From Faecalibacterium prausnitzii (GTDB lineage Bacteria; Bacillota; Clostridia; Oscillospirales; Acutalibacteraceae): 64,000 nucleotides of DNA. The notes below the pieces were generated by a model that saw only the letters and a list, made by a program, of their open reading frames with translations, did no database searches and was not told the origin of the DNA. A program made the translations under genes and the position numbers. The stretch spans positions 16,363 to 80,362 of the forward strand of contig CAVDWM010000005.1 of the NCBI GenBank assembly GCA_963612725.1, in the 5' to 3' direction. Positions 18,866 through 34,108 of this stretch are shown one piece after another (within the stretch, counting starts at the first letter, position 1; each line of letters starts with the position of its first letter).

Positions 18866-19126
18866 TCAGCTGCGCTGTATCACGTTGCCGTCGCTGTCCG
18901 TGAATTTGCCGGTCACTATCATGATAAGGTCTATAAGATATCCTATCCCGAACACACCCGCCGTAAGAGTATAAAGCACTCCGGAGCCGATCTTTCCGAC
19001 ATAGTAACGGTGTGCGCCGAGTCCGCCTACCAGAACGCAGAGAAGCAGCGTCGTCATAAAGTCCTTCGAGGATGCGCCGGTCGTCTTTTCAACATTCATT
19101 TCAACATTATTATTGTTATTTTCCAT
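18866..19126 (-). CDS. TM2-domain membrane protein
   Basis: GGLGAHRYYVGKIGSGVLYTLTAGVFGIGYLIDLI matches the TM2 signature. Confidence 0.7.
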   Translation of the reverse strand: MENNNNNVEMNVEKTTGASSKDFMTTLLLCVLVGGLGAHRYYVGKIGSGVLYTLTAGVFGIGYLIDLIMIVTGKFTDSDGNVIQRS

Positions 19127-19358
19127 TGCAAAAATCCTTTCATCAAAAATCGTAGGTGCCAGCTGCGATTCGCCACACTGCCGTCACCGCTATTGTGCCG
19201 GCTGTGCTTATATTGCTGAACACGGGTTATTTGCCAATGTCCGACACGCGGCGTTCAAAAGCTCTCAAGGCACGCCTAAAGGAAGCTTTCGTGCCGCAGC
19301 TGCCCTCGTCGGCAGCTCTGAAATGCACATTCTCTTTGCAGACCTTTAAAGACTCCCG

Positions 19359-20054
19359 TCAGTCGGCAACTATCAGGTCGCCCGGCTGAATGCCTGCGGC
19401 ATCCGGCGGAAGAAGCATTATCGCCGGAAAGCCCTCAGAAACTCCCTCCTTTGTGAAATGAAAACAGATATCCCTGTCCGGATTGCGGAGCATAAACAGC
19501 GGATCCCTATCCTCGGAAAGTACTCCGCGCCGAATCAAAAGCACGGTTATGTCTCGCGTTGTGCCACCGTGACGAAGCTCTACCAAATCGCCCTTATGGA
19601 ATATTCCTAGGCGCACATAGCCGTATACCGCGATCGCGTTTTTGTAGCGTATTGCATTCGGGATGTTCACACGGAGCGGATTGAGCTTCGGCAGCGGATG
19701 CACGAGTCTCACCTCAAACACGTTCTCCGCACCTCCGAACGAAGCGCGAAGCTCCTCACGGCAGGCGTCGGCGGTAGCGAGCTCCTGCCTCAATTGCTCC
19801 GCAGTCAGTGCCAGAACGGGATAGATATCTGTATGCGTGGGGCATGTGTTATAATCCGGTCCAACGATCATATTTAACTCAGGCCTGTAAGCCGGATTTT
19901 CTCCCACATACACCGGATATTTAAATTGCAGCGCGGCGGAGCAGTTCTTGCAGAGGATTCCCTCTTCTCTGTTATCAAGGAAGAAAAACTCGCCTGTTTT
20001 TACATTTGCACCGCACCCGACGCAGATCCACTGTTCTTTTTTCTTTGCTGCCAT
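19359..20054 (-). CDS. Zinc-ribbon-containing hypothetical protein (about 231 aa)
   Basis: N-terminal CVGCG...CKNC ribbon. Start at MAAKKKEQ (AGGAGG, 5 nt, ATG). Confidence 0.5.
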   Translation of the reverse strand: MAAKKKEQWICVGCGANVKTGEFFFLDNREEGILCKNCSAALQFKYPVYVGENPAYRPELNMIVGPDYNTCPTHTDIYPVLALTAEQLRQELATADACREELRASFGGAENVFEVRLVHPLPKLNPLRVNIPNAIRYKNAIAVYGYVRLGIFHKGDLVELRHGGTTRDITVLLIRRGVLSEDRDPLFMLRNPDRDICFHFTKEGVSEGFPAIMLLPPDAAGIQPGDLIVAD

Positions 20055-20104
20055 AAGCTCCTCCTTCTTCTTTTTCCGGGCAACACGGTCTTGCCTCAGA
20101 TGTT

Positions 20105-21757
20105 CTAAACGCTCAGCATACCCCACACGGACAGTATGAATATGACAGCCGTCCCTATTGCAATAAGTATGCCCCGCGTTGACTTTGCCGCAGACTTGAA
20201 AGTTCCGACATCGGTGAAAACCAGTTCGGCAAGCAGCAGCCTGCGATCCCTCGGCTTTCCGACAAGCCTGCGCCCGCCGTTTTGCGTCAGCTCGTAAATA
20301 TACGGTCGGTCATATGCTTTGACCCGTGCCGACTGCGTTGTGAGCAGAAGGCTGAAGGTCACCGTAAAAATGAACCAAACGCTGCCGCCGCGAAGATTCA
20401 TTTCCGCAATTCCCTCCGACACGCTGCGGTTGCTTGCAATCGCCTTTACAGCCGCTATGACCGCCGCCGCAGCGACGGGAGCGAATATCAGCGCGACGCT
20501 CTGAATCACCAGAGACAGAATTCGCCGCAGCGTCAAAAATTTATATTCGACCGCCGTCTCCCGTCCGTCAACGGTTTCATAAAACACGGGGGACAGACAC
20601 GGCGGTGCGGACGCTTCGCCCTGTGATATTAAAAGCTCGCCGTCCTCGCGGTGCGCCCGTACCCTTTCGCCGCGCTTTATGACACGGGCGGCGATAGGTG
20701 CGCGATCCTGCCCCATGCCTATAAAGAACATCAGTCCGAAAAATATTCCGAACATGCAGATATACTTCCACGAGAAGGAAATTATCGCACACAGCAGCAG
20801 CGTGACCGCAACGGTATATACCGCCGCCTCGACCGCCCAGAACGGGAACGGCTTTTTCTTTTTATCTTTTAACGAAACTGCCACGCGTCCGGTCTGACCG
20901 TTTACGACTGCGGAAAGCCTGCCCTTTTTCAGCACATACATCGGCAATGTCGCCGACGCCGAAAGCAGTCTGTCCGATGTGACCTTAATGCGCACATCGC
21001 TGTCCTGCAAGGTTCTCTGCACCGTCGGCAGGCACACCTTTTCCGCACGGCGGCGCACGCGCCTGTCGATATCGTTATCGGATATGTCGGAAATGAGAGC
21101 GCGGTGTCCTGCGATATATCCGTATTCAAAAGGCACGGCCGAATTCAGGTCAAACGGCTCGGCGGCATCGAGAACGGAGTAATCCATTTCCCGCACGCAG
21201 TTAACGGCGGTGTCCTCTATGTAGCCGCGGCACCTGTAGCTTCTTGAAAGTCCCGCTCGGTTCGCCTTAAATTCCATAGGTCCGCTCACTATCTCATACG
21301 GCAGATAGTAGCCCCGAATATCGTCCGATGAGCTGTTTATCATCCGCGCTTCGCCCGTTTTTGGGTGCTCTTTTGCCCATTCGCGCAGCCGCTCCTTTGC
21401 CTCCTGCTCGGTGAGCATGAACGGAATGACCAGATCCGGCTCAAAGCCAAGCTCCACCGCGTCGGCTCGAACGAGCCTGCCGCCGCAAAAATCGCAATCA
21501 GAAAGAGCTTCTCCCTGCGGAAATACCGTTTTTGCGCCGCAGCCCGAACAGACCGCCGTCTGCGCCTGCGCGGCGTGAGCGTGGAGCTCCTCCTTGTGAA
21601 GCTCGCGCAGCTCAAGCGAAGCCCTTCGCGTCTCCTCTATTCCCGAGGTCTCCGAGCACATGGGGCAGCGGTAGGTCTGACGCTCGATATCGAAGGTCAC
21701 GGGATGACCGCAGTTGCGGCATGTGATACGCAGTGGCGATCTGACTTCACCCATTGC
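20105..21757 (-). CDS. Double-zinc-ribbon membrane protein (family often mis-annotated 'primosomal protein N'-like'), long paralog
   Basis: Two CxxC..CxxC ribbons, a conserved PDLVIPF core, an NGQTG motif and 3-4 C-terminal TM helices. Start at MGEVRSP. Paralog of the 25622..26719 gene. Confidence 0.55.
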   Translation of the reverse strand, partial: AMGEVRSPLRITCRNCGHPVTFDIERQTYRCPMCSETSGIEETRRASLELRELHKEELHAHAAQAQTAVCSGCGAKTVFPQGEALSDCDFCGGRLVRADAVELGFEPDLVIPFMLTEQEAKERLREWAKEHPKTGEARMINSSSDDIRGYYLPYEIVSGPMEFKANRAGLSRSYRCRGYIEDTAVNCVREMDYSVLDAAEPFDLNSAVPFEYGYIAGHRALISDISDNDIDRRVRRRAEKVCLPTVQRTLQDSDVRIKVTSDRLLSASATLPMYVLKKGRLSAVVNGQTGRVAVSLKDKKKKPFPFWAVEAAVYTVAVTLLLCAIISFSWKYICMFGIFFGLMFFIGMGQDRAPIAARVIKRGERVRAHREDGELLISQGEASAPPCLSPVFYETVDGRETAVEYKFLTLRRILSLVIQSVALIFAPVAAAAVIAAVKAIASNRSVSEGIAEMNLRGGSVWFIFTVTFSLLLTTQSARVKAYDRPYIYELTQNGGRRLVGKPRDRRLLLAELVFTDVGTFKSAAKSTRGILIAIGTAVIFILSVWGMLSV

Positions 21758-21889: not shown

Positions 21890-22231
21890 CTAAGACATTT
21901 TCGGAAATCCGAGGTTGTATGCGCCGCAGGCATAGAGCCTGCCGTCCTTAAACCAGACATGCAGCACGCAGGCATCGCTTTCGGCGGCATACCAGGAATA
22001 GAGCTGCGCTTGCCGTGCGGCGTCGTAACGGTATTCCGAGGGATCGACGCCGATATGTACGACAACCTCCTCATAGGTAAGGTCAGCCTGTTCGGTGGCG
22101 AAAAAGTAATTGAGCCCTCCGAAATATTTCTCAAAAGTCTCCTTTAATGTCCCTTTTGACGCCCTGTCTCGGCTCATTTGCTGAGCCTTTGTTGACTCAA
22201 AATTCAGGTTATAAGGATCGTTCTCTTTCAT
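21890..22231 (-). CDS. Hypothetical cytoplasmic protein (113 aa)
   Basis: ORF with coding-like composition, co-directional within the island. Confidence 0.4.
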   Translation of the reverse strand: MKENDPYNLNFESTKAQQMSRDRASKGTLKETFEKYFGGLNYFFATEQADLTYEEVVVHIGVDPSEYRYDAARQAQLYSWYAAESDACVLHVWFKDGRLYACGAYNLGFPKMS

Positions 22232-22243: not shown

Positions 22244-22651
22244 CTAAACCCGCTCGAGCACGAACATACCGAGCCCGTACCGCAGACAGCCGTCTTCGGT
22301 GACGAAAATTTCCTCAAACGGATCGACCTCTTCTCCGAGAGCCTCGCCCTCGGTCTTCGTGTCATAGTAAAGCTTACCGTTTTCTTCCTTCCAAACGGTG
22401 CTCTCGACAACGCCGTAACCGTCCTCGCGGACAACGATGCCCTCCGCCTCCGCCGCTTCCCTTATCTCCTCGGGAACGGGCATGAGCGTGTTCATAACTC
22501 CGTCCTCGGCAAACTCGGTAAGGCTCTGAAGCAGCTTTTCATAATCATCAAAGCTCCCATCGGTCGGCAAGGCGTCCGCCGTAATGACCAGCTCGCCGTC
22601 CGGCGTAAAGGTATGTATTTCTTTGACCTTCCAAAGTCCTCTGACATCCAT
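22244..22651 (-). CDS. Hypothetical acidic cytoplasmic protein (about 135 aa)
   Basis: AAGGAGG, 7 nt, ATG(MDVRGLWK). The upstream part of the longer ORF looks non-coding. Confidence 0.4.
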   Translation of the reverse strand: MDVRGLWKVKEIHTFTPDGELVITADALPTDGSFDDYEKLLQSLTEFAEDGVMNTLMPVPEEIREAAEAEGIVVREDGYGVVESTVWKEENGKLYYDTKTEGEALGEEVDPFEEIFVTEDGCLRYGLGMFVLERV

Positions 22652-22721: not shown

Positions 22722-23120
22722 TCACAGCACGTGTATTTCCCCGTCCGTGACCTCAAAGCTGTAGGCAGTCCTGCCTTTTCCGTTATAATTCGAGCACAGC
22801 AGCTGACCGTCATCATATCTGAACCGTCCGCCGAGAGTCCACGCATTGTTCGGATAGGCGTCAAACTCCGCCTTTGAGATTCGGTAAATATTCCACCAGA
22901 AGCCGGAGCCGCTGCCGCCCTCGCAATATACACGCACTCCGTATATATCGCTGCCGAACACACCCGCGCCGCAGCAGAAGCCGAGCTTTGTTTCCTTGAT
23001 TATTTTAAAATCGTCAAAGGAATAAACCACGCGCTCCCTCCCGCAATTATCCACACGAAAGCGGTCGCGGTGACGGCTCCGAGCTCTTGTGAAAAGAAGC
23101 TTCCGACGCAAGTCCGTCAT
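22722..23120 (-). CDS. Hypothetical Gly/aromatic-rich protein (about 133 aa; start uncertain)
   Basis: Good coding signal in the C-terminal 110 aa (GFCCGAGVFGSDIYGVRVYCEGGSGSGFWWNIYRI...). A candidate ATG lies 3 nt after the upstream stop. Confidence 0.3.
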   Translation of the reverse strand: MTDLRRKLLFTRARSRHRDRFRVDNCGRERVVYSFDDFKIIKETKLGFCCGAGVFGSDIYGVRVYCEGGSGSGFWWNIYRISKAEFDAYPNNAWTLGGRFRYDDGQLLCSNYNGKGRTAYSFEVTDGEIHVL

Positions 23121-23122
23121 TT

Positions 23123-23698
23123 TTATGCCCAGGGATCGGCTTCCTTGGGGGTTCTGACGCCCGTGAGCAGATACTGCTCCCACAAGAACCACTTGCCGTC
23201 GCTGCCGCGCTGACGAAGCTTTATCGGGCGCGGATCGTCGGCTCCGCCGCAGGGAATGAACAGCTTCATATAGCCCTGCTCCTCGCCGGAGACATGGTTG
23301 CTCGTAACAACCACCGTATACGGCTCGGACGGAGTATAGTTGTTGTCCGGCGTAGCGCCGACAAAATAGGTGAAGGGAAGATAGGTCTTGCCGTCGCGGA
23401 AGCGGTCGTTTAAGAAGGATATCTCCTGACCGTTGAGCGGGCGCGGACCGCGAAGCCAGTTCAGCATCTCGGTGCCGATGTTTCTGTCTGCGGCATAGGC
23501 GCACAGGGCAAGAACCGTGAGAGCCGCCGTCTGAAACGGTGTGTCAAGGCTCGCCTCCGGAAGTGCCTGCATCTCGGCAAGACTCTCGGGCAGCGAGGTG
23601 AAGGTAAAGGTCTCGCGCTTATTGCCGATGGACTGCGCGGCGGTCGTTACCGCCTGCTGGGCCGTGCTTTTCAGTTTGTCGAAGATACTCATTGACAA
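23123..23698 (-). CDS. Hypothetical protein (191 aa)
   Basis: AGAGGAGAG RBS 7 nt before the ATG. Confidence 0.45.
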   Translation of the reverse strand: MSMSIFDKLKSTAQQAVTTAAQSIGNKRETFTFTSLPESLAEMQALPEASLDTPFQTAALTVLALCAYAADRNIGTEMLNWLRGPRPLNGQEISFLNDRFRDGKTYLPFTYFVGATPDNNYTPSEPYTVVVTSNHVSGEEQGYMKLFIPCGGADDPRPIKLRQRGSDGKWFLWEQYLLTGVRTPKEADPWA

Positions 23699-23721: not shown

Positions 23722-24726
23722 TTATTTCTTCTTTTTCCTGCTCAGAATCACCGCTGCGGCTGTTCCTCCACCGAGAACCGCCACACCGGGGACTGCTATA
23801 AGAGCAATCTTTTTCGGGGATGAGCCGGTCTTATCGGTATTTTTCTCCGTCGTTTCGCCGGGCATCTCCGAGGTATCAACCCGACTGTCGGCTGCCGACT
23901 CGCCGGTGATTGCTTCTGTCGTCTCCGCACTGCCGCCTGTCGAAGCGGGCGGCGCGGAGGAGGCTGTCTGCTCCGCAGCGGCTTTCGTTGGGGAGGTCGC
24001 CGCCGGAGCGGCTTTCCCGACCACAGTGACGGGAATCACACTGGAATAGGCTCTGCCGCCGAGGCTCGTCTCCACATAGCAGACATAGTACCGCGTTCCG
24101 GTCTTTGTCGTGTCACAGACGAGGATCGGGGCGTCCTCCGTATAGCCCTCCTTCGCTCCGACGGCAACGATGTCCTTGAGCTCGCCGCTTGCGGTCTCGT
24201 ACCATGTGTAGACCTTTATCTTGTCCCCGCCAGACGCCTCGGCGGAGCAGTGGAGCTTCAGAATCTTATCCTTTTCCACAGTAACCGACGCAGGCACTTT
24301 CAGCTGCGGCGGAGATTTTGTGCCGCCTACCGAGATGTACGCGCTACGCGAGGTCACGCTGCCCGTCTTGTTTGAAACAACGCAGTATATCTCCGCGCCG
24401 TCAAGGGCACTTCCGATTCCGTTGATAAAGAACCCGTTTCCGACATCATTTCTGCCGTATCCGTCGCCGACAACGCCCTCCTGCCACGGATGGTTTTCGA
24501 CGAAGGATCTTGTCGTGTTGTAGGCAACGCCTTTATACACGATGAACCAATCATATACAAGGTCGTCTCCGGTAGCCTCCACTGTCCAATATGCCGAGGA
24601 ATTTTCCGGAAATACCATATTCTGCGGCTGGAGGGTGATCTCTATTTTACCCGCCGCGAGCACCTGCGCAGGTGCCGAAACCGTAAGGATGAGTGCGAAC
24701 AGTAAAGCTGTCAGTATTCGTCTCAT
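23722..24726 (-). CDS. Secreted Ig-like-domain surface protein with S/T/A-rich stalk and C-terminal TM anchor
   Basis: Signal peptide MRRILTALLFALILTVSAPAQVLAAG. Two Ig-like beta-rich modules of about 100 aa, a PT/S-rich linker, and a C-terminal TM + KKKK. Confidence 0.55.
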   Translation of the reverse strand: MRRILTALLFALILTVSAPAQVLAAGKIEITLQPQNMVFPENSSAYWTVEATGDDLVYDWFIVYKGVAYNTTRSFVENHPWQEGVVGDGYGRNDVGNGFFINGIGSALDGAEIYCVVSNKTGSVTSRSAYISVGGTKSPPQLKVPASVTVEKDKILKLHCSAEASGGDKIKVYTWYETASGELKDIVAVGAKEGYTEDAPILVCDTTKTGTRYYVCYVETSLGGRAYSSVIPVTVVGKAAPAATSPTKAAAEQTASSAPPASTGGSAETTEAITGESAADSRVDTSEMPGETTEKNTDKTGSSPKKIALIAVPGVAVLGGGTAAAVILSRKKKK

Positions 24727-24751: not shown

Positions 24752-25606
24752 TCAAAAGCTGCCGCCGCCTCCGCCGTGTGATGTTCCCGATGAGGATGTG
24801 TGAGTGCTCGAACCGCCTGAGCTGCTGCTTGACGACTTCGGCTTTTCGGTGCGCACCACATTTGTTGTAATAAACTCGTCTCTGCTGCCGGTGACAGCCA
24901 TGCTTCCGGGCACAACATAGCTGTTTGCCGCCGCCTGGAACCGCACCGTCTTGAGCTTCGCCTTCATTCTTCCGACAACGATAAGCGAGATCAGAACACC
25001 CACAATAATCGAAATGGGTATCCATATCGGCGAAAGCAGCTCTTTTGCGGCAGGTTCCTCCGGCATATTGTCAACATCGTACGGTTCGCCGTTTTCCGCC
25101 TGAACGGCAAAGGCGTCGCAGGTCTCGACATATGTCGTGAATGCAGCGGCGTAATCTCCCGCCGACAGATCGGGAACCATCTTCTCGCCGATATGCGCGA
25201 TTCCGGCATCGGTAAATATCTTTATTGCGCTCCCCGTTGTAGTTATGTGCCACTTGCGTTCGCCCATACTGATAAGGAACAAAACGCAGTTGTGATTCTC
25301 GCCCTGACCGTAGCCGTAATAGTCGCAGAAATCATCTGCATAATCCTCTATGTCTCTGTCGTCGAGAGCTTCTATCGTGACCACCGCGATATCCATATTA
25401 TGCTTCGCACTCGCCTCTTCAAGCTTCGTGAGAAGCTGCTGCTCCTCGGTATCGGTTAGGATATCGGCATCGTCTACGAGCAGCGGATACATCCTCTCCT
25501 GCGGAACGGTGCCGGAATAAGGAGGCGCGGGCACGGCAAACGACGGAACGACCGTCACAAGGCAAATCACAAGAGCAAAAAGCATTGCACAAATTTTCTT
25601 TTTCAT
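24752..25606 (-). CDS. TPM-domain protein (TLP18.3/Psb32/MOLO-1 family), membrane-anchored with Gly/Ser-rich tail
   Basis: Signal peptide, then the TPM core (YPLLVDDADILTDTEEQQLLTKLEEASAKHNMDIAVVTIEAL), a TM helix and a C-terminal SSSSSGGSSTHTSSSG tail. Confidence 0.7.
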   Translation of the reverse strand: MKKKICAMLFALVICLVTVVPSFAVPAPPYSGTVPQERMYPLLVDDADILTDTEEQQLLTKLEEASAKHNMDIAVVTIEALDDRDIEDYADDFCDYYGYGQGENHNCVLFLISMGERKWHITTTGSAIKIFTDAGIAHIGEKMVPDLSAGDYAAAFTTYVETCDAFAVQAENGEPYDVDNMPEEPAAKELLSPIWIPISIIVGVLISLIVVGRMKAKLKTVRFQAAANSYVVPGSMAVTGSRDEFITTNVVRTEKPKSSSSSSGGSSTHTSSSGTSHGGGGGSF

Positions 25607-25621: not shown

Positions 25622-26719
25622 TTACATATACAGCAGAATGTGGACGAGCCACGCAAGACCGTAGGTAGCGGCGCTCAGTGCCGCCGCCAGTCCCAGTCTC
25701 CAGCGCATCGCCGCAGACTTATCCACCGGCAGGTCTCCGACGAGCTTGCCCGTCTGTCCGTTCATGGCAAAGGTATACTGCTTGCCCTGATATGTTGTGT
25801 TGAGCAGCCATACAGGGTAAAGCGCATACTTCGCAACGCCGTTTTGCAGCCTTATAAAGCTGCTGTCGGGCGTCACGGAATCGTAGCCCTTAACAGTGTC
25901 CCTGAAGAGCTCTTCGACGCTGCTCTTGACGCGGCTGTTGGCTCTGTCAACGCTCTGCTCAGCAGTCACATCGTACTTATCCGCAAGATATCCGGCGAGA
26001 TAAGCCGTTTGGAAATTCACCGCTGCGGCGAGATCGAAGGGCTCTATCGACTCCATCAGGTCGTCCGCCATCTTCTCGGAGCCGTCCACCGGTATCGCCG
26101 CAAAATCGGTGCAGCCGTCCCGATACACTCTGTAGAGGCTCGTCTCCGTATAGTTATAGTCGCTGTCGCTCCATTTTCTTATCTTCTTCGCGTCATAAAC
26201 GACCGAGGCGTCGGCATGGGCGTCAAACAGCCAGAACGGAACATATATCCCCTTTATCTCGTCGATATGGTTCTCGTCCTTGAAGGTTTTCGGCAGCAGC
26301 CGTTTCCCCGAAATATGCTTTTTGAACGCTTCCTTTGCGTCCTTTTTATTGAGCTTGAACGGAATAACGATATCCGGCTTGAGCATTCCCGAAAACTGCT
26401 CCATCATAACGACCGGATTTCCGCAGAACGGGCAAGAGGTCGCGGCGGTTGTCTCGTCGCCGACTATCTCGCCTCCGCAGGACTTGCAGACATAGGAGCG
26501 CAGTCCGCCTTTTTCGTCCTCCGTCCATTCTCCGCCCGCGGCAGTCTGCCACTGCATATCGTCCGCGCCCGCGCCGCCGTCAAGCCCCGCGTCGAGACTT
26601 GCGAGCTCCTCCATAGCATATTCGGAGTCGCAGAACGGACATTTCATTTTTTGGATATCACTGTTGAATTCAAGCGCGCCGCCGCAGGCAGGGCACTTGT
26701 ATTCCTGCAAGGTTTGCAT
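25622..26719 (-). CDS. Double-zinc-ribbon membrane protein, short paralog of 20105..21757
   Basis: CPACGG..CPFCDS and CKSCGG..CPFCGN ribbons, a PDIVIPFKL core, an MNGQTGKL motif and C-terminal TM segments. Start at MQTLQEYK (GAGAGGAG RBS). Confidence 0.55.
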   Translation of the reverse strand: MQTLQEYKCPACGGALEFNSDIQKMKCPFCDSEYAMEELASLDAGLDGGAGADDMQWQTAAGGEWTEDEKGGLRSYVCKSCGGEIVGDETTAATSCPFCGNPVVMMEQFSGMLKPDIVIPFKLNKKDAKEAFKKHISGKRLLPKTFKDENHIDEIKGIYVPFWLFDAHADASVVYDAKKIRKWSDSDYNYTETSLYRVYRDGCTDFAAIPVDGSEKMADDLMESIEPFDLAAAVNFQTAYLAGYLADKYDVTAEQSVDRANSRVKSSVEELFRDTVKGYDSVTPDSSFIRLQNGVAKYALYPVWLLNTTYQGKQYTFAMNGQTGKLVGDLPVDKSAAMRWRLGLAAALSAATYGLAWLVHILLYM

Positions 26720-26830
26720 AAAAAGCTCCTCTCTTAAAGAATCTCTCCCGTTGGGCGCCGCAGAGCGCACCTGCCGGCTGCAGATTCATCTTACTTTCGG
26801 TCGATAGCTTTACACGGCTTTTCGTATTTT

Positions 26831-27703
26831 TTATTCGTACTTTTCCGCAAGACGGAAAAAGGCCTCCGTCAGTTCTTTGCCGGGATCAATGGGTGCATAT
26901 ATCCAGCTGCCGTCGGAAAAATCAAACGAAATCTTATATGTGGTTTCGTCAAGAATGATCAGACCGTCGTCCTCCGGCTCCACATATTGCACGACCTGAC
27001 CGATAAGCTGCTGCCTTTCTACGATATCAAGTATCTCCTTCGCCGCATCCTCCTCGACACGCCTGTCTTCCACTTCCGTGCGGTATTCCCTGTCGCCGAC
27101 TACGGCATCACACGAAAAGAGCCATGCGTTTTCTTCCCTTCTGAGAGTGAAGGTATGGGAGTATGAATAGTCCATGCAGCTGCGCACTATAAACACTTCC
27201 GTGAGCGTCCTTGTCTCCGCCGCCTCATAGTGAGTGTCGGCAAGAGAATAGAGATAATCCATCGTCTTCTCGCCGAGAGCCGTGTTCTTTTCTATCCTGT
27301 TCCCGTCGGAGAAGGTCACTGCGGTGATGCGCGTCGGCGCATCGGGGATATGAAAGAGCCGTGCCATGTCAAGGTGCCGGCGCAGACGCGTTATTTCCCT
27401 CTCCTCGCTGACAAGGGAAATGAGCTTCTCAGCCTCATCAGTCGATATCGGAAAACAGCTGAACGAGGTGTAATGCTCCTTTTGCTCTCCCACGCGGCAG
27501 CTTGCGGAAAAGAACCAGCCGCGATCCCCCTTCAGCAGAGCGAAGGAATATACGGGGTCTCTTTCCGTGCCGTAATATGAGGTACTCAGCGAAACGATTT
27601 CATCGGCAGTGAATTTTTTGTTCCCGCCGCAGCCGAACATACCGGAAATCAGGGACAGAAGTGACATAACAATCACCGCCTTACGCACAATTTTATTTTT
27701 CAT
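26831..27703 (-). CDS. Lipoprotein, hypothetical (290 aa)
   Basis: Signal peptide with a lipobox-like ...SGMFGCGG. Confidence 0.5.
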   Translation of the reverse strand: MKNKIVRKAVIVMSLLSLISGMFGCGGNKKFTADEIVSLSTSYYGTERDPVYSFALLKGDRGWFFSASCRVGEQKEHYTSFSCFPISTDEAEKLISLVSEEREITRLRRHLDMARLFHIPDAPTRITAVTFSDGNRIEKNTALGEKTMDYLYSLADTHYEAAETRTLTEVFIVRSCMDYSYSHTFTLRREENAWLFSCDAVVGDREYRTEVEDRRVEEDAAKEILDIVERQQLIGQVVQYVEPEDDGLIILDETTYKISFDFSDGSWIYAPIDPGKELTEAFFRLAEKYE

Positions 27704-27790: not shown

Positions 27791-28297
27791 CTACTGCTTG
27801 CCCTGATTCGTTTTCTTTGCTTTTGTCGTCTGCTTTTCGGCGGTCTTTCGTCCGCCGGACAGTGTCTTTGAAATATCCGCCACGGCTGCGCCCCCGAAAA
27901 CGAGGGACGCAACGGAAAGGATAAATCCGAAAGTGTTCGTGCTCGACAGCTTATAGTCACCCTTTGCGGTTCTGTACACCTCGACCGAAACGGTCTCGCC
28001 GCTATATGTTTTGGTGCCGAAGGTTTTCTTGCCGGTGTACGTCTTGCCGTCAACGGTGAAGCTCAGCGTCGCCTTCCACTTTTCGTCCGTTATATCGCCG
28101 TCATCGTCCTTCCTGTAGCTGTGCTCCACACGAGTGACCACGGCATCGACGACGCGCACGTCGGAGGACTTTCTGTATGCCCGTCCGCCCGTCAGGGTCG
28201 TGAAAAGCCCGTACAGTCCGAGGAGTATAAAAACCGCCGCGAAAACGATGGAAAATGTCAATGTTTTGCCTTTTTTGGTCTGGGGTGCTTTTTTCAT
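27791..28297 (-). CDS. DUF3592-like membrane protein (TM, beta-rich domain, TM), paralog A
   Basis: Topology and motifs ...TAVVT..(D/E)-rich..KxxAxLxFxVDGKTYxG...VxVEVYRTxKGxYKLS are shared with 30665..31159. Confidence 0.5.
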   Translation of the reverse strand: MKKAPQTKKGKTLTFSIVFAAVFILLGLYGLFTTLTGGRAYRKSSDVRVVDAVVTRVEHSYRKDDDGDITDEKWKATLSFTVDGKTYTGKKTFGTKTYSGETVSVEVYRTAKGDYKLSSTNTFGFILSVASLVFGGAAVADISKTLSGGRKTAEKQTTKAKKTNQGKQ

Positions 28298-28427
28298 AAG
28301 CTCTACCCTCCGTCAATCGAACCGTACCTTAAGGTCGGTCTATGTCCTCGGAGCTCCGCGCCGCAAGCCCATACGCATCTCCGTCGGTGAGGTCATGCGC
28401 TTGCTTTTGTGCGGAGCTCTGCCGTCG

Positions 28428-29333
28428 TCAGCCCTTCGGCGTTCCGCATCCCTCGCAGAAATTACCGTTGTTAACGGTTCCGCAATTCGGGCAGGTCCAC
28501 GATGCGGCAGCTGCCTGCTGAACCGGCTGCTGGGCATATCCGCCCTGCATAGGCTGTTGAGCATATCCTCCCTGCATGGGCTGCTGAGCGTAACCGCCCT
28601 GCATGGGCTGCTGAGCATAACCGCCTTGCATGGGTTGCTGAGCGTACCCGCCCTGCATGGGCTGCTGAGCGTAACCGCCCTGCATGGGCTGCTGAGCATA
28701 ACCGCCCTGCATGGGCTGACCGAAGCCGCCCGCGGACGCGCCGCGGCGCAGAAGCGCATTCGTTATCTCGTTCGCCTGACGCTCATACTCTCTGTAAAGA
28801 TCGGTGAACTGGCTCTCGGGTCTGTTGTTCTCACTGAGCTCGAACTCTATTTCGGAGAACCACGGAGAGTTGACCTGTATCTCAATCTTGAACTCATATT
28901 CGCACTCATAGCGCGGGGGCGAATAGCTCTCGCGTTTGCCGTCCTGAGTTTCGAGGAATATCTCGTCCTTATGCTCCTCTATATCGGCTCTGCAAGAGGT
29001 GACCTGCGAAAGGTCGATGAGATCCGGGTTGGCTCTGCGCCAGTCCGAGGCGCGGGTGACGATAAACTTGCCCGCGTTCATGTCGATGTAAATTTTCGTG
29101 CGGTCGCCGTAAATGAGAGAGGGATTGAAGGACGAGAGTTTTTTCTCGTTCTCCTCACGGTAGGCAAGCTGCTGCTTTATCTCCTCCACGGTCGAGCGGC
29201 GGCGGTCGCTGAAGAACGGCGAAAGCTTCGAGGCGCACTCCTTGCAGAGATTTCCGTCCTCCAGCTTGCGGTTTCCGAGAAGGCCTATCTTCTCGCCGCA
29301 AACATCACAGTATTTTTTGTCAAAAAGTCCCAT
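28428..29333 (-). CDS. DUF4428-like zinc-ribbon protein with (GGYAQQPMQ)x8 repeat and C-terminal WxCxxCG zinc ribbon
   Basis: N-terminus MGLFDKKYCDVCGEKIGLLGNRKLEDGNLCKECASKL. Eight tandem 9-aa repeats. C-terminus WTCPNCGTVNNGNFCEGCG. AAGGAGGG RBS. Confidence 0.55.
   Translation of the reverse strand: MGLFDKKYCDVCGEKIGLLGNRKLEDGNLCKECASKLSPFFSDRRRSTVEEIKQQLAYREENEKKLSSFNPSLIYGDRTKIYIDMNAGKFIVTRASDWRRANPDLIDLSQVTSCRADIEEHKDEIFLETQDGKRESYSPPRYECEYEFKIEIQVNSPWFSEIEFELSENNRPESQFTDLYREYERQANEITNALLRRGASAGGFGQPMQGGYAQQPMQGGYAQQPMQGGYAQQPMQGGYAQQPMQGGYAQQPMQGGYAQQPMQGGYAQQPVQQAAAASWTCPNCGTVNNGNFCEGCGTPKG
28525..28725. repeat. Tandem 27-bp repeat (about 7-8 copies; consensus ctgcatgggctgctgagcgtaaccgcc on the + strand), coding
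   Basis: Read directly. It encodes the GGYAQQPMQ repeats on the minus strand. Confidence 0.85.
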
Positions 29334-29347
29334 TAAAGACCCTCCTT

Positions 29348-30652
29348 TTATTTTTCGGTCGCTTTTACGACCCATTTTGCATTGTCAGTCTGTAAACCGT
29401 AGCCGCAGAACGAACAGCAGCCGTGTTCGTCCGGAATAAAATTCGCGCCGCAGGACGGGCAGTCTCTTTCAGTAAAGAGCTCGCCCTTGCCCTTTCTTCT
29501 TTGGGGATATCTCGCCCTTTGCAAAACAAGCGTCTTTGTGAATTTTTTCGTGTACGGTTTTTTGTTTTTCGGAAGATAAATCTCGCGTCCGTAGATTTGA
29601 GCGGTTATCTCGGTCGTTTTCTCCGTATTGACGACCTTTTTCAAAATGACTGTGCCGATGCTGTGATCCATCAGATCGGCATTTTTTATTTCCTTGTACA
29701 GTGCCTCGTCGATGCATGAGCGCAGGTAGTTCTCGGAATACCTGACTATTTCACCCGCCGGCTTTTCCCGTTTTGTTTTTCTGTGAATCAAAAGCGCAAC
29801 GGTAGTTGCCAGAACGAAAGCCGCCGCCCCGACCCCTGCCGCCAGAGACACCTCCGTATCCTTGATGAGCCAGAGGCACAGGAACACGCAGACAAAAAGG
29901 ACAAGCGACGACGCAAGCAGCTGCAAGGCTCTTCGCTGATTCGTCCCGAGCTCCTCGTATATCTCGAAAGCTTCGGTCTGCCAGTCGTAAAAATCGCTGT
30001 GAATCATTCCGCCGCAGTACGGGCAGACCGCCTGCTGACTGTCAAGCCCGATCTGTGCGCCGCAGGACGGGCAGCTTATCTCCGACCGGTCGTCATAGTA
30101 GCTTTTCTTTTTCTCCGTCCTGTCGGAGGTGCGAATATGCCTTGACTCAAGGAGCCTGACATAGGCATTTTTGCGATACAGCTCGTATACGGGCTTGCCG
30201 TCCCGCTTGGACACGAGGCGCTCCAGTACACTGCACCGCAAAACAGCCTCGCGCCATTCCCGACCGTCGTCGCTCCACCTTTTGAAGTCGTTCTTCGGCA
30301 GCGGAACAACATCCGCCAATCGGATATCGCGGAAAAGCCCTCTTTGCGCAAGCAGGTCAAGCTGCCGCTCGGTATTTTTGCGGAACACCATATCCATTCT
30401 CGCAGGGAGCAGCTCCTTATCCGCCTTGCTCAGCGGACGGAGAGCTTTCTCAAGGGCTTCTCTGACATCGCCGTGAAGACCCATTCCCTGCAGCGGTGTC
30501 TCGCGCTCGGCAAGCAGCCTTTTCATTTTCGCTTTTTTCATATTCTGCGGCAGGAGACCGGAAATATCGATATCGATAATCTTTTCGCCGACAAAATATG
30601 CGCAGAGCACAGTGACCGCCGCCGCTATAAGCAACGCATCCGTTAAGCTCAT
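29348..30652 (-). CDS. Zinc-ribbon/TM protein (434 aa) with two CPSCG-type ribbon pairs
   Basis: CPSCGAQIG...CPYCGG and CPSCGANF...CSFCGY, an N-terminal TM and two central TM helices. Confidence 0.5.
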   Translation of the reverse strand: MSLTDALLIAAAVTVLCAYFVGEKIIDIDISGLLPQNMKKAKMKRLLAERETPLQGMGLHGDVREALEKALRPLSKADKELLPARMDMVFRKNTERQLDLLAQRGLFRDIRLADVVPLPKNDFKRWSDDGREWREAVLRCSVLERLVSKRDGKPVYELYRKNAYVRLLESRHIRTSDRTEKKKSYYDDRSEISCPSCGAQIGLDSQQAVCPYCGGMIHSDFYDWQTEAFEIYEELGTNQRRALQLLASSLVLFVCVFLCLWLIKDTEVSLAAGVGAAAFVLATTVALLIHRKTKREKPAGEIVRYSENYLRSCIDEALYKEIKNADLMDHSIGTVILKKVVNTEKTTEITAQIYGREIYLPKNKKPYTKKFTKTLVLQRARYPQRRKGKGELFTERDCPSCGANFIPDEHGCCSFCGYGLQTDNAKWVVKATEK

Positions 30653-30664: not shown

Positions 30665-31159
30665 TTATTCTTTCGCCTCGGCCTTTTTGCCCTTTGCCGC
30701 CTTTTTATCCGAATTATCGGTAAATATGGAGTACGCCATTGCCACGGTAAGGAAGCCGCCGACGGGAATCGCTATGCAGTAAACGAGAAAGACGACGGGG
30801 TTTCTGTCCGGACTGAGCTTATATGTGCCCTTCGATGTCCGATAAACCTCGACCGTGACCTTATCTCCCTTGCTTATTTTTCGGTAGTAGGTCTCGGTCC
30901 CCTTATAGGTCTTCCCGTCAACGTCAAAGGCGAGCTTTGCCCTGTACTTGTAATCGCCGTAATCCTCATCGTCGCCGATATCCTTATAATCCGTGACGAC
31001 CGCCGTGACCTTGCGGATATCCTCGGAGTTCTTGTACTCCCGACTTGCGACCCTGCTGAAAACAACGCCGCAGATACCCGCCGCAAGCACGGCGACGGCA
31101 AAAAGCAATGCCGCAACGGAATATAATTTGTTCTTTATTTTACTCGTATCCTTGCTCAT
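30665..31159 (-). CDS. DUF3592-like membrane protein, paralog B
   Basis: Start at MSKDTSK (GGAGGAG RBS). Conserved ...VTAVVTDYKDIGDDEDYGDYKYRAKLAFDVDGKTYKGTETYYRKISKGDKVTVEVYRTSKGTYKLS. Confidence 0.5.
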   Translation of the reverse strand: MSKDTSKIKNKLYSVAALLFAVAVLAAGICGVVFSRVASREYKNSEDIRKVTAVVTDYKDIGDDEDYGDYKYRAKLAFDVDGKTYKGTETYYRKISKGDKVTVEVYRTSKGTYKLSPDRNPVVFLVYCIAIPVGGFLTVAMAYSIFTDNSDKKAAKGKKAEAKE

Positions 31160-31292
31160 AACGGCTCCTCCGATAAGGCTCAGGGATGAAGAGGCGGGCT
31201 CTGTCATATACGGCTGCATTTAAAAGCCGTATCGGTATTGTGCCAAAACAAAATTGACTGTACCGAAAACTGTTTTTATATTTTTCGCGAGA

Positions 31293-32708
31293 TCACTGCT
31301 TGTCGTTCTCGTCAAACAGGTCGCCGCATTCGGGGCAGAATTTCGGAGGATTCGCCGGATCTGCAGGCTCCCAGCCGCACTTGTCGCAGCGATAGAGCGG
31401 TGCGCCCGCAGGCTTTTGAGCACCGCAGTTCTGGCAGAACTTGCCCTTGTTCACCGTGCCGCACGAGCATCTCCAGCCCTCCGCGTCAGCGGGCTTGGGT
31501 GCGCCGCACTCGGGGCAGAACTTGCCGGTCGCAGTCGCGCCGCAGGAGCATTTCCAGCCGTCCGCCGGCTGGGGCTCCGGCTTCTTTGCGCCGCAGTTCG
31601 GGCAGAATTTTCCGTTCACGGTCGCGCCGCACGAGCATTTCCAGCCGTCCGCCGCAGGTGCCGCAGGTGCGCTTTGCTGCGCCTGAGCCTGCTGTTGCTG
31701 CTGACCCATGGCAAAGAGGTTCTGCGCGTTCATTCCGCCGCCGGCATTCATAGCCATGCCCATGCCCAAAAAGCCTGTCATTGCGCCAGCCTGATTGCCT
31801 GCCGCAGTCTTCATCGCGTCAGCCTGAGCGCCGACGAGGGTCGCCGCCGCCATGGTGGGATCGCGCATGATAGCGGAACGCTGCGCCTGCTTGATGAGCT
31901 CCGCATCCTCATCGGGAAGCGTGACGGAGCCGAGGGCTATGGTGATGACCTTGATTCCGCGCAGCTCGCCCCACTTTGCGGAGAGGGCGGTATTCATTGC
32001 CGCTTCAAGCTCGGTGTTGTGAGCCACTATCTGATTGGGGCGAAGCTCGAGATCCGAGAGCTGGGCAAATGCGGGCTGAAGTGCGCTGATGAACTCCGTC
32101 TTGAGCTGGTTGTCTATTTCCTCACGGGTATAATCCTGCTCGACATTGCCGCAGACATTGGTGTAGAAGAGCATGGGGTCGTCTATCTTGTAGGAATAGA
32201 CGCCGGAGCAGCGAACCGCGACATCGATATCCAGCCCTATCTTTGAATCGACAACGCGGAAGGGGATGGGATTCGGAGTGCCGAATTTGTTATCCATTAT
32301 CTCCTTGGTGTTGAAATAATAGACGCGCTGATCCTTTCCCGTATCTCCGCCGTAAGCGAAACGCTTGCCGATGGTCTTGAAGGTTTGCTTTATGCTGTCG
32401 CCGAGAGAGCCCGAGAAAATCGAGGGCTCGGTGGAAGCGTCGTATGTAAACTCTCCGGGCTCCGCACAGAACTCAACGACCTTGCCCTGCTCGACTATCA
32501 TCATGCACTGACCGTCCGCAACGGCTATTCCCGAGCCGTTTGAGATGATATTGTCGCTGCCCTTCGTGTTCGACGATCTGTCGCCGACACGCTTTTGTCC
32601 CTTTGTAACAAGCAGCTCCTTCGGCATTGCCTCACAATAGAAAAATTCTTTCCACTGATCGGCAAGAACGCCGCCGACCGCTCCGATACCGGCTTTAATA
32701 AGTCCCAT
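31293..32708 (-). CDS. SPFH/band-7 domain protein (YdjI-like 'virion core protein-like') with three C-terminal zinc-ribbon repeats
   Basis: N-terminus MGLIKAGIGAVGGVLADQWKEFFYCEA, typical of the YdjI-like SPFH family. Met/Gly/Gln-rich linker. 3x (DGWKCSCGATVNGKFCPNCGA) plus a fourth CDKCG..CPECG ribbon. Confidence 0.6.
   Translation of the reverse strand: MGLIKAGIGAVGGVLADQWKEFFYCEAMPKELLVTKGQKRVGDRSSNTKGSDNIISNGSGIAVADGQCMMIVEQGKVVEFCAEPGEFTYDASTEPSIFSGSLGDSIKQTFKTIGKRFAYGGDTGKDQRVYYFNTKEIMDNKFGTPNPIPFRVVDSKIGLDIDVAVRCSGVYSYKIDDPMLFYTNVCGNVEQDYTREEIDNQLKTEFISALQPAFAQLSDLELRPNQIVAHNTELEAAMNTALSAKWGELRGIKVITIALGSVTLPDEDAELIKQAQRSAIMRDPTMAAATLVGAQADAMKTAAGNQAGAMTGFLGMGMAMNAGGGMNAQNLFAMGQQQQQAQAQQSAPAAPAADGWKCSCGATVNGKFCPNCGAKKPEPQPADGWKCSCGATATGKFCPECGAPKPADAEGWRCSCGTVNKGKFCQNCGAQKPAGAPLYRCDKCGWEPADPANPPKFCPECGDLFDENDKQ
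31418..31650. repeat. Three tandem copies of a repeat of about 78 bp, coding (zinc-ribbon modules)
   Basis: Read directly: repeated ...gcaccgcagttctggcagaacttgcc...gagcatctccagcc... units. Confidence 0.7.
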
Positions 32709-32773
32709 AGATAAAAACTCCTTTGCAAATAATATTTTAAAAATTACAAGGGTCGCGCCCTTTTTTCGACAAT

Positions 32774-33319
32774 TTATCCTTTCATCTGCTCCGTCTGAGC
32801 CGTCTGACCCGCAAGAACGAAATCGGTCTTTCCGTCCCGACCGTCATAGGTGAGCGTCCGGCTTGCCTTCATATCGCCTTTTTGAGCCTCTATCACGGCG
32901 GGCGGAACAGTCTCGGCGAGATAGCCGTCAAACTCATAGACCTCGCCCTTTTTGACCTTCACCGTGAACAGCACTCCGTCCGTCACAAGCTCCCCGCTCT
33001 GCTCGTCATATCTGAGCTTAACGAGCGAAACGGTCACTCCGTCCGTATTCGATACAAATCGTATGCGGTCGTCAGAGCGTGTGCCTATGCCCGTTGTGAA
33101 CACACCCACGGGCTCCGAAAGCGACATAAAGGAGTCCGATTTCGGGTCGGTATACAGTGAAAGCTCAAACGCATCTCCCGCGCCGTCGCGCTCCGTCATC
33201 CGCTCCTCGGTCGTCTGCCCGCTCTGCGTTTTCGGGTCGAAGGTTCGCCCGCAGCCGGAGAGAACAATAAGCGCGGCGAGAGCTGCGACAACCGCTCCCA
33301 CGAAAGCTGTCTTCTTCAT
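32774..33319 (-). CDS. Lipoprotein, hypothetical
   Basis: MKKTAFVGAVVAALAALIVLSGCG signal/lipobox. Confidence 0.5.
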   Translation of the reverse strand: MKKTAFVGAVVAALAALIVLSGCGRTFDPKTQSGQTTEERMTERDGAGDAFELSLYTDPKSDSFMSLSEPVGVFTTGIGTRSDDRIRFVSNTDGVTVSLVKLRYDEQSGELVTDGVLFTVKVKKGEVYEFDGYLAETVPPAVIEAQKGDMKASRTLTYDGRDGKTDFVLAGQTAQTEQMKG

Positions 33320-33336
33320 TTCATCTACCCCCGTAA

Positions 33337-33813
33337 TTATGGCAGCTGCGTCCATGTGTCGGAAACTGCATCGTACTCATAGACGACCCTGTCAAGATAG
33401 TCAAAGCACAGATATATCTCCCTGACGAACTGACCGTCACGGCTCGTACCCAGGGCATAAACATTGCAGTACACCCCATCCTGAAGTGTCGTCTCGCCCG
33501 TGTCCATGACCGACATGCCCATGTCAAGATATCTGCCCGCTCCCGCACTGCACTCACGCAGCACCTGCGGAACCATTTCTATGGGTATGTCTGTCCTCTG
33601 ATTTGACGGAGCCTCTCCGCCCGCCGAAAATGTCTCAGACGCTTTCTCCGTCTCCCTCTGCGTCTCCCGCTCGGTCGTCTCGGGGTGCTCCTGCGTCGAA
33701 GAAACCCGAGTCTCTCCGTCCTTCACGCAGCCGCACAGCAGCAGAGTCGGCAGCAGCACGGCAAGCAGCACCGCCGCAGCCCTTCTCGTCACTCTCCTCA
33801 CGGCAAAAATCAT
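33337..33813 (-). CDS. Lipoprotein, hypothetical
   Basis: Signal peptide ...AAAVLLAVLLPTLLLCGC lipobox, then a TE-rich linker. Confidence 0.5.
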   Translation of the reverse strand: MIFAVRRVTRRAAAVLLAVLLPTLLLCGCVKDGETRVSSTQEHPETTERETQRETEKASETFSAGGEAPSNQRTDIPIEMVPQVLRECSAGAGRYLDMGMSVMDTGETTLQDGVYCNVYALGTSRDGQFVREIYLCFDYLDRVVYEYDAVSDTWTQLP

Positions 33814-34108
33814 CCTCCCTCTCACCGTTGACTTTCTTTATAAAATCCGATGTTGATGCGGAATAAGGATTGACGTTCCTTTTCGGTTCGTCCGATGTCC
33901 CCGAGCAGCGGCTCACCCAGCTGATGATAACCGTTCTGAGCAAAACGGCAGCCAGCCATACCGACAGGAGCAGCACGAACCACAGGACGGATATTTTAAA
34001 AACGAAGTGAGCCGCGAGTGCCGCCCACGCCGGAATCGACCAGCCGATGTCCAGCGCCAGATTCATCAGAAAGCAGAGCAAAAAACCCTTGCGGTCGCGC
34101 CTTCTCAT
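33635..34108 (-). CDS. Possible small 2-TM membrane protein (its 3' part overlaps the next lipoprotein gene in another frame)
   Basis: The ORF contains convincing TM helices (FLLCFLMNLALDIGWSIPAWAALAAHFVFKISVLWFVLLLSVWLAAVLL). The C-terminal 60 codons overlap 33337..33813, so its true end is uncertain. Confidence 0.25.
   Translation of the reverse strand: MRRRDRKGFLLCFLMNLALDIGWSIPAWAALAAHFVFKISVLWFVLLLSVWLAAVLLRTVIISWVSRCSGTSDEPKRNVNPYSASTSDFIKKVNGEREDDFCREESDEKGCGGAACRAAADSAAVRLREGRRDSGFFDAGAPRDDRAGDAEGDGESV

Follow-up and report, generated by a model that had tools for sequence, protein, structure and literature searches.

The 64,000-nucleotide stretch of Faecalibacterium prausnitzii DNA analysed here (contig CAVDWM010000005.1, positions 16,363 to 80,362; hereafter the window) contains, on its minus strand between 18866 and 34108, a gene island that we read, with a probability of roughly 0.65, as a conserved Oscillospirales operon organised around a YdjI-type SPFH (Band_7_1) scaffold protein and enlarged in this lineage by variable accessory genes. 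The original prediction, made from the letters of the window, had described a 15-kb block of about 18 genes as a candidate uncharacterised envelope-associated system, resembling the accessory repertoire of Psp and Lia stress loci. Comparison with related genomes redraws this unit, as only five of its genes are collinear across them, namely those for the SPFH protein (g15), a DUF4428 protein (g12), a YdjG-like membrane protein (g09), a TPM-domain protein (g08) and a DUF6935 protein (g06). Most of the remaining genes occur in 1 to 15 of 80 related loci, mainly in close relatives. Thus, the unit has a stable core of five genes, around which genes for extracytoplasmic and zinc-ribbon proteins turn over rapidly.

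For the genomic comparison we used the DUF4428 protein as the anchor, because the island fits entirely within 10 kb on either side of its gene. We aligned the relatives of this protein and used the alignment to scan a collection with one genome for each species, which yielded at least 559 relatives among the first 600 pattern matches listed. The best 80 loci formed the neighbourhood set, in which every island protein was compared by blastp with all open reading frames (ORFs), and the proteins of the loci were also clustered by sequence. These loci are labelled mostly as Ruminococcus, Acutalibacteraceae, Oscillospiraceae, Ca. Fimenecus and unclassified Clostridia metagenome-assembled genomes (MAGs), with isolates of Anaeromassilibacillus and Yeguia in addition. 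The recurrent order is SPFH, DUF4428, YdjG-like, TPM and DUF6935, with the genes adjacent in most genomes and on the strand of the anchor essentially always. When sufficient flanking sequence was available, 39 of 56 loci had an SPFH gene on the upstream side of the DUF4428 gene, 44 of 57 a YdjG-like gene on its downstream side, and 44 of 57 a DUF6935 gene as a partner; blastp recovered the TPM partner in 35 of 57 loci, whereas clustering found it in 48 loci. At least three of the four partners are present in 28 of 43 loci. Homologs of the five core genes do, therefore, co-occur outside this genome, with short gaps and at about 50% identity, in dozens of species.

Three observations on individual loci accompany this picture. 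First, the clusters of two loci, L079 (labelled Eggerthellaceae) and L031 (labelled Roseburia intestinalis), encode SPFH proteins 84-87% identical to that of the window, together with DUF4428 and YdjG-like genes that are 50-68% identical; either these contigs were probably mis-binned or the MAGs they come from are probably mislabelled. Second, a cluster reduced to the DUF4428 gene and, about 0.5 kb away, the DUF6935 gene occurs in six loci of Ruminococcus sp. and relatives (L003, L006, L016, L020, L026 and L063), and no SPFH, YdjG-like or TPM gene was found within 10 kb in any of them; the DUF4428 and DUF6935 proteins may form a functional pair of their own. Third, more distant SPFH homologs were compared in three further loci, L083, L095 and L099. 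The pairing of SPFH and YdjG-like genes is kept at 38-40% SPFH identity in L083 and L099, the YdjG-like protein of L099 being 35% identical (E 1e-81), and a TPM gene accompanies the pair in L083 and none does in L099. In L083 (11492-13812, minus strand) this triad, whose SPFH protein is 38% identical, adjoins opposite-strand TelA and XpaC/Halogen_Hydrol genes, another stress-associated pair.

The central component, g15 (31293..32708, minus strand, as are all genes of the island), encodes a soluble SPFH protein with a Gln-rich linker and four C-terminal zinc-ribbon modules. Its assignment as a YdjI-like band-7 protein, which had been made from the sequence, is borne out by matches to the Pfam families Band_7_1 (66.5 bits, cut-off 24) and Band_7 (26.8 bits). 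A motif and hydropathy scan found no transmembrane (TM) segment in this protein, and placed the four Cys-pair modules at residues 356-462. An 87-bp tandem repeat within the gene (31458-31652, minus strand; 2.3 copies, 78% matches) encodes zinc-ribbon modules of the form W-x-CSCG...GKFC-x2-CG, which points to enlargement of the SPFH tail by recent module duplication. The best 120 database relatives listed for g15 are 79-89% identical, and the GC content of the island (0.53-0.57) is the same as that of its flanks, without compositional anomaly; together, strong conservation and unremarkable GC speak for vertical inheritance and a housekeeping or stress function.

The two membrane proteins of the core have the architecture of known SPFH partners. 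The product of g09 (25622..26719) carries two N-terminal zinc ribbons (residues 9-30 and 78-99), a conserved globular region and a C-terminal TM anchor (344-362), and is YdjG-like in this respect. Its zinc ribbons match A2L_zn_ribbon at 26.4 bits (cut-off 22.9) and Zn_Ribbon_TF at 28.1 bits, slightly below the cut-off of 29, and its sequence profile found no relative in the PDB except zinc ribbons. The product of g08 (24752..25606), which is YdjH-like, consists of a signal or TM segment (5-23), a TPM domain, a second TM segment (194-212) and a Ser/Gly-rich tail ending in GGGGGSF; the TPM domain originally proposed for it is confirmed at 117.7 bits (TPM_phosphatase).

The two other core proteins belong to families of unknown function. 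The DUF4428 protein, g12 (28428..29333), whose tentative family assignment holds at 64.8 bits, above the curated Pfam cut-off, is composed of a DUF4428 zinc ribbon, a helix, a PH-like domain, a low-complexity linker of seven QPMQGGYAQ repeats and a C-terminal zinc ribbon. Structure models give a zinc ribbon plus a PH-like domain as the predicted fold. The C-terminal zinc ribbon, with motif W-x-C-x2-CG...GxFC-x2-CG, is of the same type as that repeated in the SPFH tail, and relatives of g12 have a terminal RCDKCGW...PKFCPxCGD module in common with the SPFH protein. The linker is encoded by a 27-bp tandem repeat (28525-28718, minus strand), which is present in 7 copies here, in 10 copies in an otherwise identical MAG contig (L002) and in 9 copies in P0121, a copy-number polymorphism between near-identical strains.

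The DUF6935 protein, g06 (23123..23692), was overlooked in the original prediction, as were the small ORF g05b and the two-TM gene g18 described below. It matches its family at 218.9 bits, starts with an N-terminal amphipathic helix (MSIFDKLK...) followed by an NTF2-like domain, and ends in DPWA, a C-terminus that is invariant in the DUF6935 family. Structure models give an amphipathic helix plus an NTF2-like domain as its predicted fold; the model was built from a shallow alignment (82-93% identity). We found no mention of DUF6935 in the literature. Sequence searches against the PDB with g06, g09, g12, g15, g02 and g07 gave either nothing, or only zinc-ribbon or weak Ig matches, and NCBIfam offered no informative family for any island protein.

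These architectures are best appreciated against the pspA-ydjGHI operon of Bacillus subtilis. In that system the band-7 protein YdjI is soluble and carries a zinc ribbon at its C-terminus, YdjG combines two zinc ribbons with a YpeB-related NTF2-like domain and a TM segment, and YdjH consists of a TPM domain and a low-complexity tail (PMC8581546, PMC11237479), the C-terminus of which, as deduced from the published primers, is SRGSF (PMC8581546). YdjG and YdjH are both required for membrane recruitment of YdjI and, via YdjI, of PspA (Scholz et al., 2021; PMC8581546). The island has counterparts of all three proteins, encoded by co-directional genes that are adjacent in the core: g15 corresponds to YdjI as a soluble Band_7_1 protein with C-terminal zinc ribbons, g09 to YdjG with its two N-terminal zinc ribbons, globular region and TM segment, and g08 to YdjH with TPM domain, TM segment and a low-complexity tail that likewise ends in GSF. 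However, the island differs from the Bacillus operon in lacking pspA, in its gene order (I...G-H instead of G-H-I), in the four zinc-ribbon modules of its SPFH tail, and in two added conserved partners that are not in the described operon, namely the DUF4428 protein (zinc ribbon plus a predicted PH-like domain) and the DUF6935 protein (predicted NTF2-like). It also differs in that no sigma-W-type motif was found in the window, and that a NarL-type two-component system lies alongside.

The lack of pspA, already noted in the original prediction, was established by several means. Searching all ORFs of the window and of the 80 loci (10 kb on either side) by phmmer with probes for PspA and LiaH gave nothing at E<=1, whereas the same PspA probe recovers PspA and Vipp1 from the PDB at 1e-82 to 1e-10. 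Pfam searches of the PspA-sized ORFs of the window were negative, and no conserved coiled-coil cluster was found among the neighbours in the 80 loci. Clostridia receive no mention in the searchable text of the published Psp phyletic survey.

Other SPFH and stress systems provide looser parallels. Band-7 operons of the flotillin/NfeD and YqiJK/YuaFG types include abbreviated forms that are PspA-free, and these are presumed to use PspA encoded elsewhere (Ravi et al., 2024; PMC11237479). The island resembles them in that an SPFH scaffold is encoded with dedicated membrane partners, sometimes without PspA; but they pair a TM-anchored Band_7 or flotillin protein with NfeD or YqiJ, whereas the SPFH protein of the island is a soluble, TM-less Band_7_1 protein, and no NfeD or YqiJ-like domain was found at the locus with Pfam. 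As in LiaIH-LiaFSR, genes for a NarL/LuxR-family response regulator and a multi-TM histidine kinase adjoin genes for membrane-associated stress-type proteins; unlike that system, the island has no LiaH/PspA, two kinases are present, one of the 7TM type, with no HisKA_3 match in the kinase, and no island protein matches LiaI/LiaF-TM or Toastrack (DUF4097) in Pfam. Of the original Psp/Lia-like assignment, then, the domain-level analogy of g15, g09 and g08 with YdjGHI stands and the Lia part finds no counterpart among the domains of the island proteins. Finally, a preprint from 2025 describes homologs of the membrane nuclease SNIPE in which DUF4428 or PH domains replace the TM anchor (bioRxiv 10.1101/2025.11.03.685801). 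Like these TM-less homologs, which carry DUF4428 or PH at their N-terminus, g12 combines DUF4428 with a PH-like fold, but it has no nuclease domain and sits in an SPFH operon rather than in a defence locus. The use of DUF4428 and PH domains in SNIPE homologs suggests, by analogy, a membrane-proximal targeting role for DUF4428.

Taken together, the module may best be read, by analogy with the Bacillus proteins, as an SPFH scaffold for membrane maintenance or stress. Since no PspA is encoded nearby, such a scaffold would act either without PspA or with PspA encoded elsewhere. In the mechanism that we propose, the soluble SPFH protein is tethered on the cytoplasmic side of the membrane by g09, which would be tail-anchored, and by g08, which would be bitopic with an external TPM domain and an internal tail; the SPFH oligomers forming there would serve as a scaffold and mark or stabilise a patch of membrane. 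Because the SPFH and DUF4428 proteins carry the same C-terminal zinc-ribbon modules, the latter is probably brought to the same site, joining it through this shared tail and through its PH-like domain. The DUF6935 protein may dock through its N-terminal amphipathic helix; the lineage-specific lipoproteins, Ig-like, TM-beta-TM and TM2 proteins could supply envelope-side contacts or inputs; and the adjacent NarL-type two-component system may set expression. The output would most likely be membrane maintenance or stress protection. It is tempting to go further and to regard the five genes as a self-sufficient, PspA-independent membrane-protection machine, with the DUF4428 protein, the DUF6935 protein or both as the effector replacing PspA, and with the variable genes as lineage-specific envelope sensors, but we consider this stronger version unlikely.

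The gene run itself is real and somewhat larger than first thought. After listing the ORFs of the window and choosing start codons by support from ribosome-binding sites (RBSs), we count 19-20 uninterrupted minus-strand genes between 18866 and 34108, which agrees with the original estimate of about 18 genes as regards the run, although not as regards one conserved 18-gene system. The unbroken single-strand arrangement from the TM2 gene to the lipoproteins, also pointed out originally, stands as well, but most of the overlaps then reported vanish with realistic starts, the intergenic gaps now being 12-232 nt. The ATG of g18 at 34108 shifts the true start of the unit to about 34.1 kb. At the other end, a terminator-like hairpin (18669-18684, minus strand) closes the run and faces a convergent plus-strand ORF (18119-18658); no strong terminator was found in between, from 34.1 to 18.7 kb. 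This plus-strand ORF, of 179 aa, overlaps an equally long minus-strand ORF (18107-18643) and has no match in Pfam, NCBIfam or PADLOC.

That these genes are co-directional says little by itself. Genes on the minus strand continue upstream with those for a 5'-nucleotidase, a response regulator and two histidine kinases, carB and purC (SAICAR synthase), reaching at least 14 kb past the island, and the window shows negative GC skew between about 5 and 40 kb, so that the arrangement looks like ordinary leading-strand bias. The sole tRNA of the window lies at 54.2 kb, distant from the island, in which no Rfam riboswitch or leader was found, and no mobility gene was detected at the locus. A gut MAG (GCA_963608215.1) and a Logan assembly match the window. 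Long plus-strand ORFs at 25640-26737, 28134-29336 and 31254-32246 were discarded as shadow ORFs, as the Pfam matches sit in the minus-strand frames, and clusters of antisense ORFs in related loci have no independent support as genes.

Around the core, the accessory genes of the upstream part encode mainly membrane and lipoproteins. The first of them, g18 (33635..34108), encodes a small two-TM membrane protein, the homologous part of which covers approximately the first 105 aa, to roughly 33794. It has blastp matches in 14 related loci, always directly upstream of lipoprotein or SPFH genes, where the homologs are about 95-110 aa long and end in KENKNPYS. The usual stop codon is missing here, which leaves an ORF of 157 aa that overlaps the following lipoprotein gene by about 170 nt; the protein has a sub-threshold match to DUF3742, and the gene is not called in MAG records. 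The overlapped gene, g17 (33337..33801), encodes a lipoprotein with a signal peptide ending in LLLCGC and without a Pfam match, relatives of which were found in 12 of the 80 loci at 34-48% identity. It is followed by g16 (32774..33319), for a lipoprotein with lipobox LSGC and relatives in 7 loci; both are lineage-variable accessories.

Between the SPFH and YdjG-like genes lie two paralogous accessory genes, g14 (30665..31159; 6 of 80 loci) and g11 (27791..28297; 4 of 80), which encode proteins made of a TM segment, a beta-rich loop and a second TM segment and are 41% identical to each other (E 2e-23, blastp). The topology and paralogy originally proposed for this pair hold; the DUF3592 (PF12158) assignment does not reach the cut-off of 25.3 bits, with 16.9 bits (E 0.01) for g11 and 14.1 bits (E 0.075) for g14, both on loop residues 51-103. 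The arrangement of these genes varies, with g11 placed before g12 in L048 and L079 and two tandem copies in L023.

Next to g14, g13 (29348..30652; 7 of 80 loci), an accessory gene here although its type recurs beside SPFH genes elsewhere, encodes a membrane protein in which a TM segment, a domain and a zinc ribbon precede a TM hairpin, and a further domain and zinc ribbon follow it. Its Zn_ribbon_3 match (34.1 bits) is above the Pfam cut-off. In L095, where the SPFH protein is 42% identical, the 440-aa product of the neighbouring gene matches Pfam Tim44 above threshold (32.9 vs 29.6 bits), and g13 aligns with it both collinearly over the full length (E 7e-8) and shifted by half, the latter alignment pointing to an internal duplication in g13. 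From its sequence, g13 is best read as two copies of a putative Tim44-like domain plus zinc ribbon around a TM hairpin, and would represent a second kind of membrane partner, with zinc ribbons, for Band_7_1 proteins, a protein of this type independently adjoining the distant SPFH gene of L095. Downstream of g11, g10 (26831..27703) encodes a probable lipoprotein (MKNKIVRKAVIVMSLLSLISGMFGC...) without a Pfam match, a semi-conserved neighbour of the DUF4428 gene that has direct blastp matches in 15 loci and falls into the same sequence cluster in 26.

The downstream part of the island is occupied by a surface protein, several small soluble proteins and a second YdjG-like protein. The product of g07 (23722..24726) has a signal peptide, beta-rich repeats, a stalk rich in Ser, Thr, Ala and Pro, and a C-terminal TM segment; its gene, found in 6 of the 80 loci, lies in each case between those of the TPM and DUF6935 proteins. 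These features fit the accessory surface protein originally foreseen, but its Ig-like nature stays sub-threshold in Pfam (Ig_3/Ig_2, 19.5 bits vs a cut-off of 30), with PDB matches to Ig proteins at E 0.07-0.9. After g06, g05b (22722..23030) encodes a soluble protein of 102 aa, called as a gene in the MAG record, present in 2 of 80 loci and without a Pfam match; g05 (22244..22651) one of 135 aa with an RBS-supported start and no Pfam match, which occurs in 13 loci directly before or after the DUF6935 gene and is thus a semi-conserved neighbour of it; and g04 (21890..22177) one of 95 aa, an accessory found in 3. A YdjG-like paralog of g09, g03 (20105..21754), has two zinc ribbons and the same globular region followed by a polytopic C-terminal membrane domain of 4-5 TM segments, and matches g09 at E 1e-22 over about 330 aa (blastp). 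The next gene, g02 (19359..20054), encodes a soluble protein with an N-terminal, weakly DUF4428-like zinc ribbon, a C-terminal region without assignment, and no relative in the PDB. Both g03 and g02 are lineage-specific, with an ortholog only in L079 among the 80 loci, and the soluble products of g02, g04, g05 and g05b have no assignable domains. The run ends 232 nt further on with g01 (18866..19126), for a TM2-domain membrane protein (58.7 bits in Pfam), which was found in 2 of the 80 loci and is loosely associated with the rest.

Looking at the island proteins as a whole, the internal paralogy that had been proposed is real, as the pairs g03 and g09, and g11 and g14, demonstrate. The claim of at least seven zinc-ribbon proteins fused to TM segments was overstated: a motif and hydropathy scan places zinc ribbons in six proteins (g02, g03, g09, g12, g13 and g15), of which only three, g03, g09 and g13, have TM segments. 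Other lineages surround the same core with accessories of their own, such as a small Cys-rich zinc-ribbon protein encoded upstream of the SPFH gene, another DUF4428-like protein and, on the downstream side of the DUF6935 gene, two unrelated lipoproteins.

The genes upstream of g18 are possibly associated with the island. They encode a cytoplasmic 5'-nucleotidase/metallophosphoesterase without a signal peptide (34267-35760), a LuxR/NarL-type (GerE-type) response regulator (35867-36484), a histidine kinase (36481-37917) and a 7TM histidine kinase (37914-40364), all on the minus strand and assigned with the help of Pfam. Of the 29 loci with complete flanks, 11 have a triad of this architecture (7TM kinase, second kinase and regulator) next to the core and on its strand; in L053 the triad lies within the cluster. 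The 5'-nucleotidase gene is matched in 6 of the 80 loci; its ORF abuts or overlaps that of g18, with zero intergenic gap, in L038, L053, L068 and L074, and a link to nucleotide signalling is possible.

A candidate start of the transcription unit lies at 34139..34189 on the minus strand, where a T-rich tract and then a perfect TATAAT (34139-34144) come after a palindrome, ACTACTC-N5-GGGTAGT (34171-34189); 3' of the TATAAT, a strong RBS, GGGGGGAG, precedes the ATG of g18. Terminator-like hairpins are located 3' of the upstream 5'-nucleotidase gene, and the block of palindrome and TATAAT is kept in L049 and L050. A second copy of both elements occurs at 35845-35863, between the response-regulator and 5'-nucleotidase genes, so that the window holds two copies of the motif ACTACyC-N3-7-GGGTAG, each with a TATAAT about 25 nt after it, for a chance expectation of about 0. 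In L050 there is a matching palindrome pair (5081-5099 and 6665-6683). Both palindromes stand in consecutive intergenic regions downstream of the response-regulator gene and, judging from their sequence and position, may be intrinsic terminators, candidate operators for the NarL-type regulator, or both. The original prediction had suggested looking for a LiaR or σ-ECF box upstream of the island; the window contains no match to the sigma-W-type promoter consensus, which we take to be TGAAAC-N16-CGTA.

How do these results bear on other explanations of the island? A single integrated envelope system that takes in all of the 15-kb block with its about 18 genes, every one of them obligatory, would agree with the co-directional genes and the absence of a strong internal terminator, with L079, the closest relative, which retains nearly the whole gene order including g03 and g02, and with the zinc-ribbon, TM and lipoprotein theme that the proteins have in common. 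Yet the limited distribution of most non-core genes, the varying order and copy number of the TM-beta-TM genes, the different lipoproteins and small zinc-ribbon protein that other lineages place around the same core, and a co-directionality that extends well past the island make this improbable. At the opposite extreme, the island could be a chance adjacency of unrelated uncharacterised membrane genes without any functional unit, given that leading-strand bias explains the shared direction and that many of the genes have no family assignment. For the core this is refuted by five families that keep the same order and strand, with short gaps, across dozens of species at about 50% identity, and chance adjacency, very unlikely for the island in general, is possible only for peripheral genes such as the TM2 gene.

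Two further explanations concern function. A membrane module for abortive infection or for phage exclusion, the latter also raised in the original prediction, draws on the N-terminal DUF4428 domain that some homologs of the defence nuclease SNIPE have, and on the membrane-acting proteins and variable accessories that defence loci often have. Against it, PADLOC-DB 2.0 gave no match for 19 of 20 proteins and, for the remaining one, a marginal match of a zinc ribbon to PDC-S64 (E 0.0023, 15 bits); domain searches of the island revealed no effector domain, whether nuclease, NTPase, protease or another; the locus shows neither compositional anomaly nor mobility genes; the core, rather than patchy, is widespread and strongly conserved in sequence and order in the Clostridia genomes sampled; and just 10 relatives of the DUF4428 anchor were found in 2.9 million viral contigs (IMG/VR), against at least 559 in species-representative genomes. 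We therefore regard a defence role as very improbable. There is also a small chance that the SPFH protein scaffolds or regulates another client encoded elsewhere, such as a membrane protease, a transporter or cell-wall synthesis, in the manner of HflK/C-FtsH or stomatin-NfeD rather than in Psp-type repair. SPFH proteins commonly form cages around client membrane proteins (PMC10936438), deletion of ydjG or ydjH in B. subtilis mislocalises peptidoglycan synthesis, unlike deletion of pspA or ydjI (PMC8581546), and lipoproteins and surface proteins accompany the core here; but no protease, NfeD or transporter gene is conserved beside it, and its conserved partners are those that accompany PspA in Bacilli.

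Several results also weigh against the reading that we prefer, namely that of a conserved operon around a YdjI-type SPFH scaffold. PspA, the defining effector of the Psp system, is absent from the window and from the 10 kb on either side in the 80 loci, and the correspondence of g15, g09 and g08 to YdjI, YdjG and YdjH would hold at the level of domains and architecture only. We infer membrane tethering, oligomerisation and a stress role by analogy with one B. subtilis study. The Ruminococcus loci that carry just the DUF4428 and DUF6935 genes imply that the core is not obligatorily made of five genes, and gaps of 110-230 nt at six junctions of the run make several separate transcription units possible. 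The DUF6935 model is of moderate confidence (predicted local distance difference test score, pLDDT, 68.6) because of its shallow alignment, and the idea of paralogy between a soluble DUF6935 and the globular domain of YdjG was rejected, as a comparison of g09 with DUF6935 by hhalign returned a probability of 0.3.

What is new here is a PspA-less SPFH module of the YdjGHI type with two added conserved partners; evidence for a categorically new mechanism there is none. Replacing the monolithic 18-gene picture with this module narrows genetic experiments to five genes. For two families of unknown function, DUF4428 and DUF6935, the analysis provides a genomic context and predicted fold-level assignments, a zinc ribbon plus PH-like domain and an amphipathic helix plus NTF2-like domain, respectively, and ties both to a YdjI-type SPFH scaffold in abundant, mostly uncultured gut Clostridia. 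The occurrence of a YdjG/H/I triad without adjacent PspA, and with other conserved partners, bears on the question of whether these proteins are adaptors of PspA or have a function of their own.

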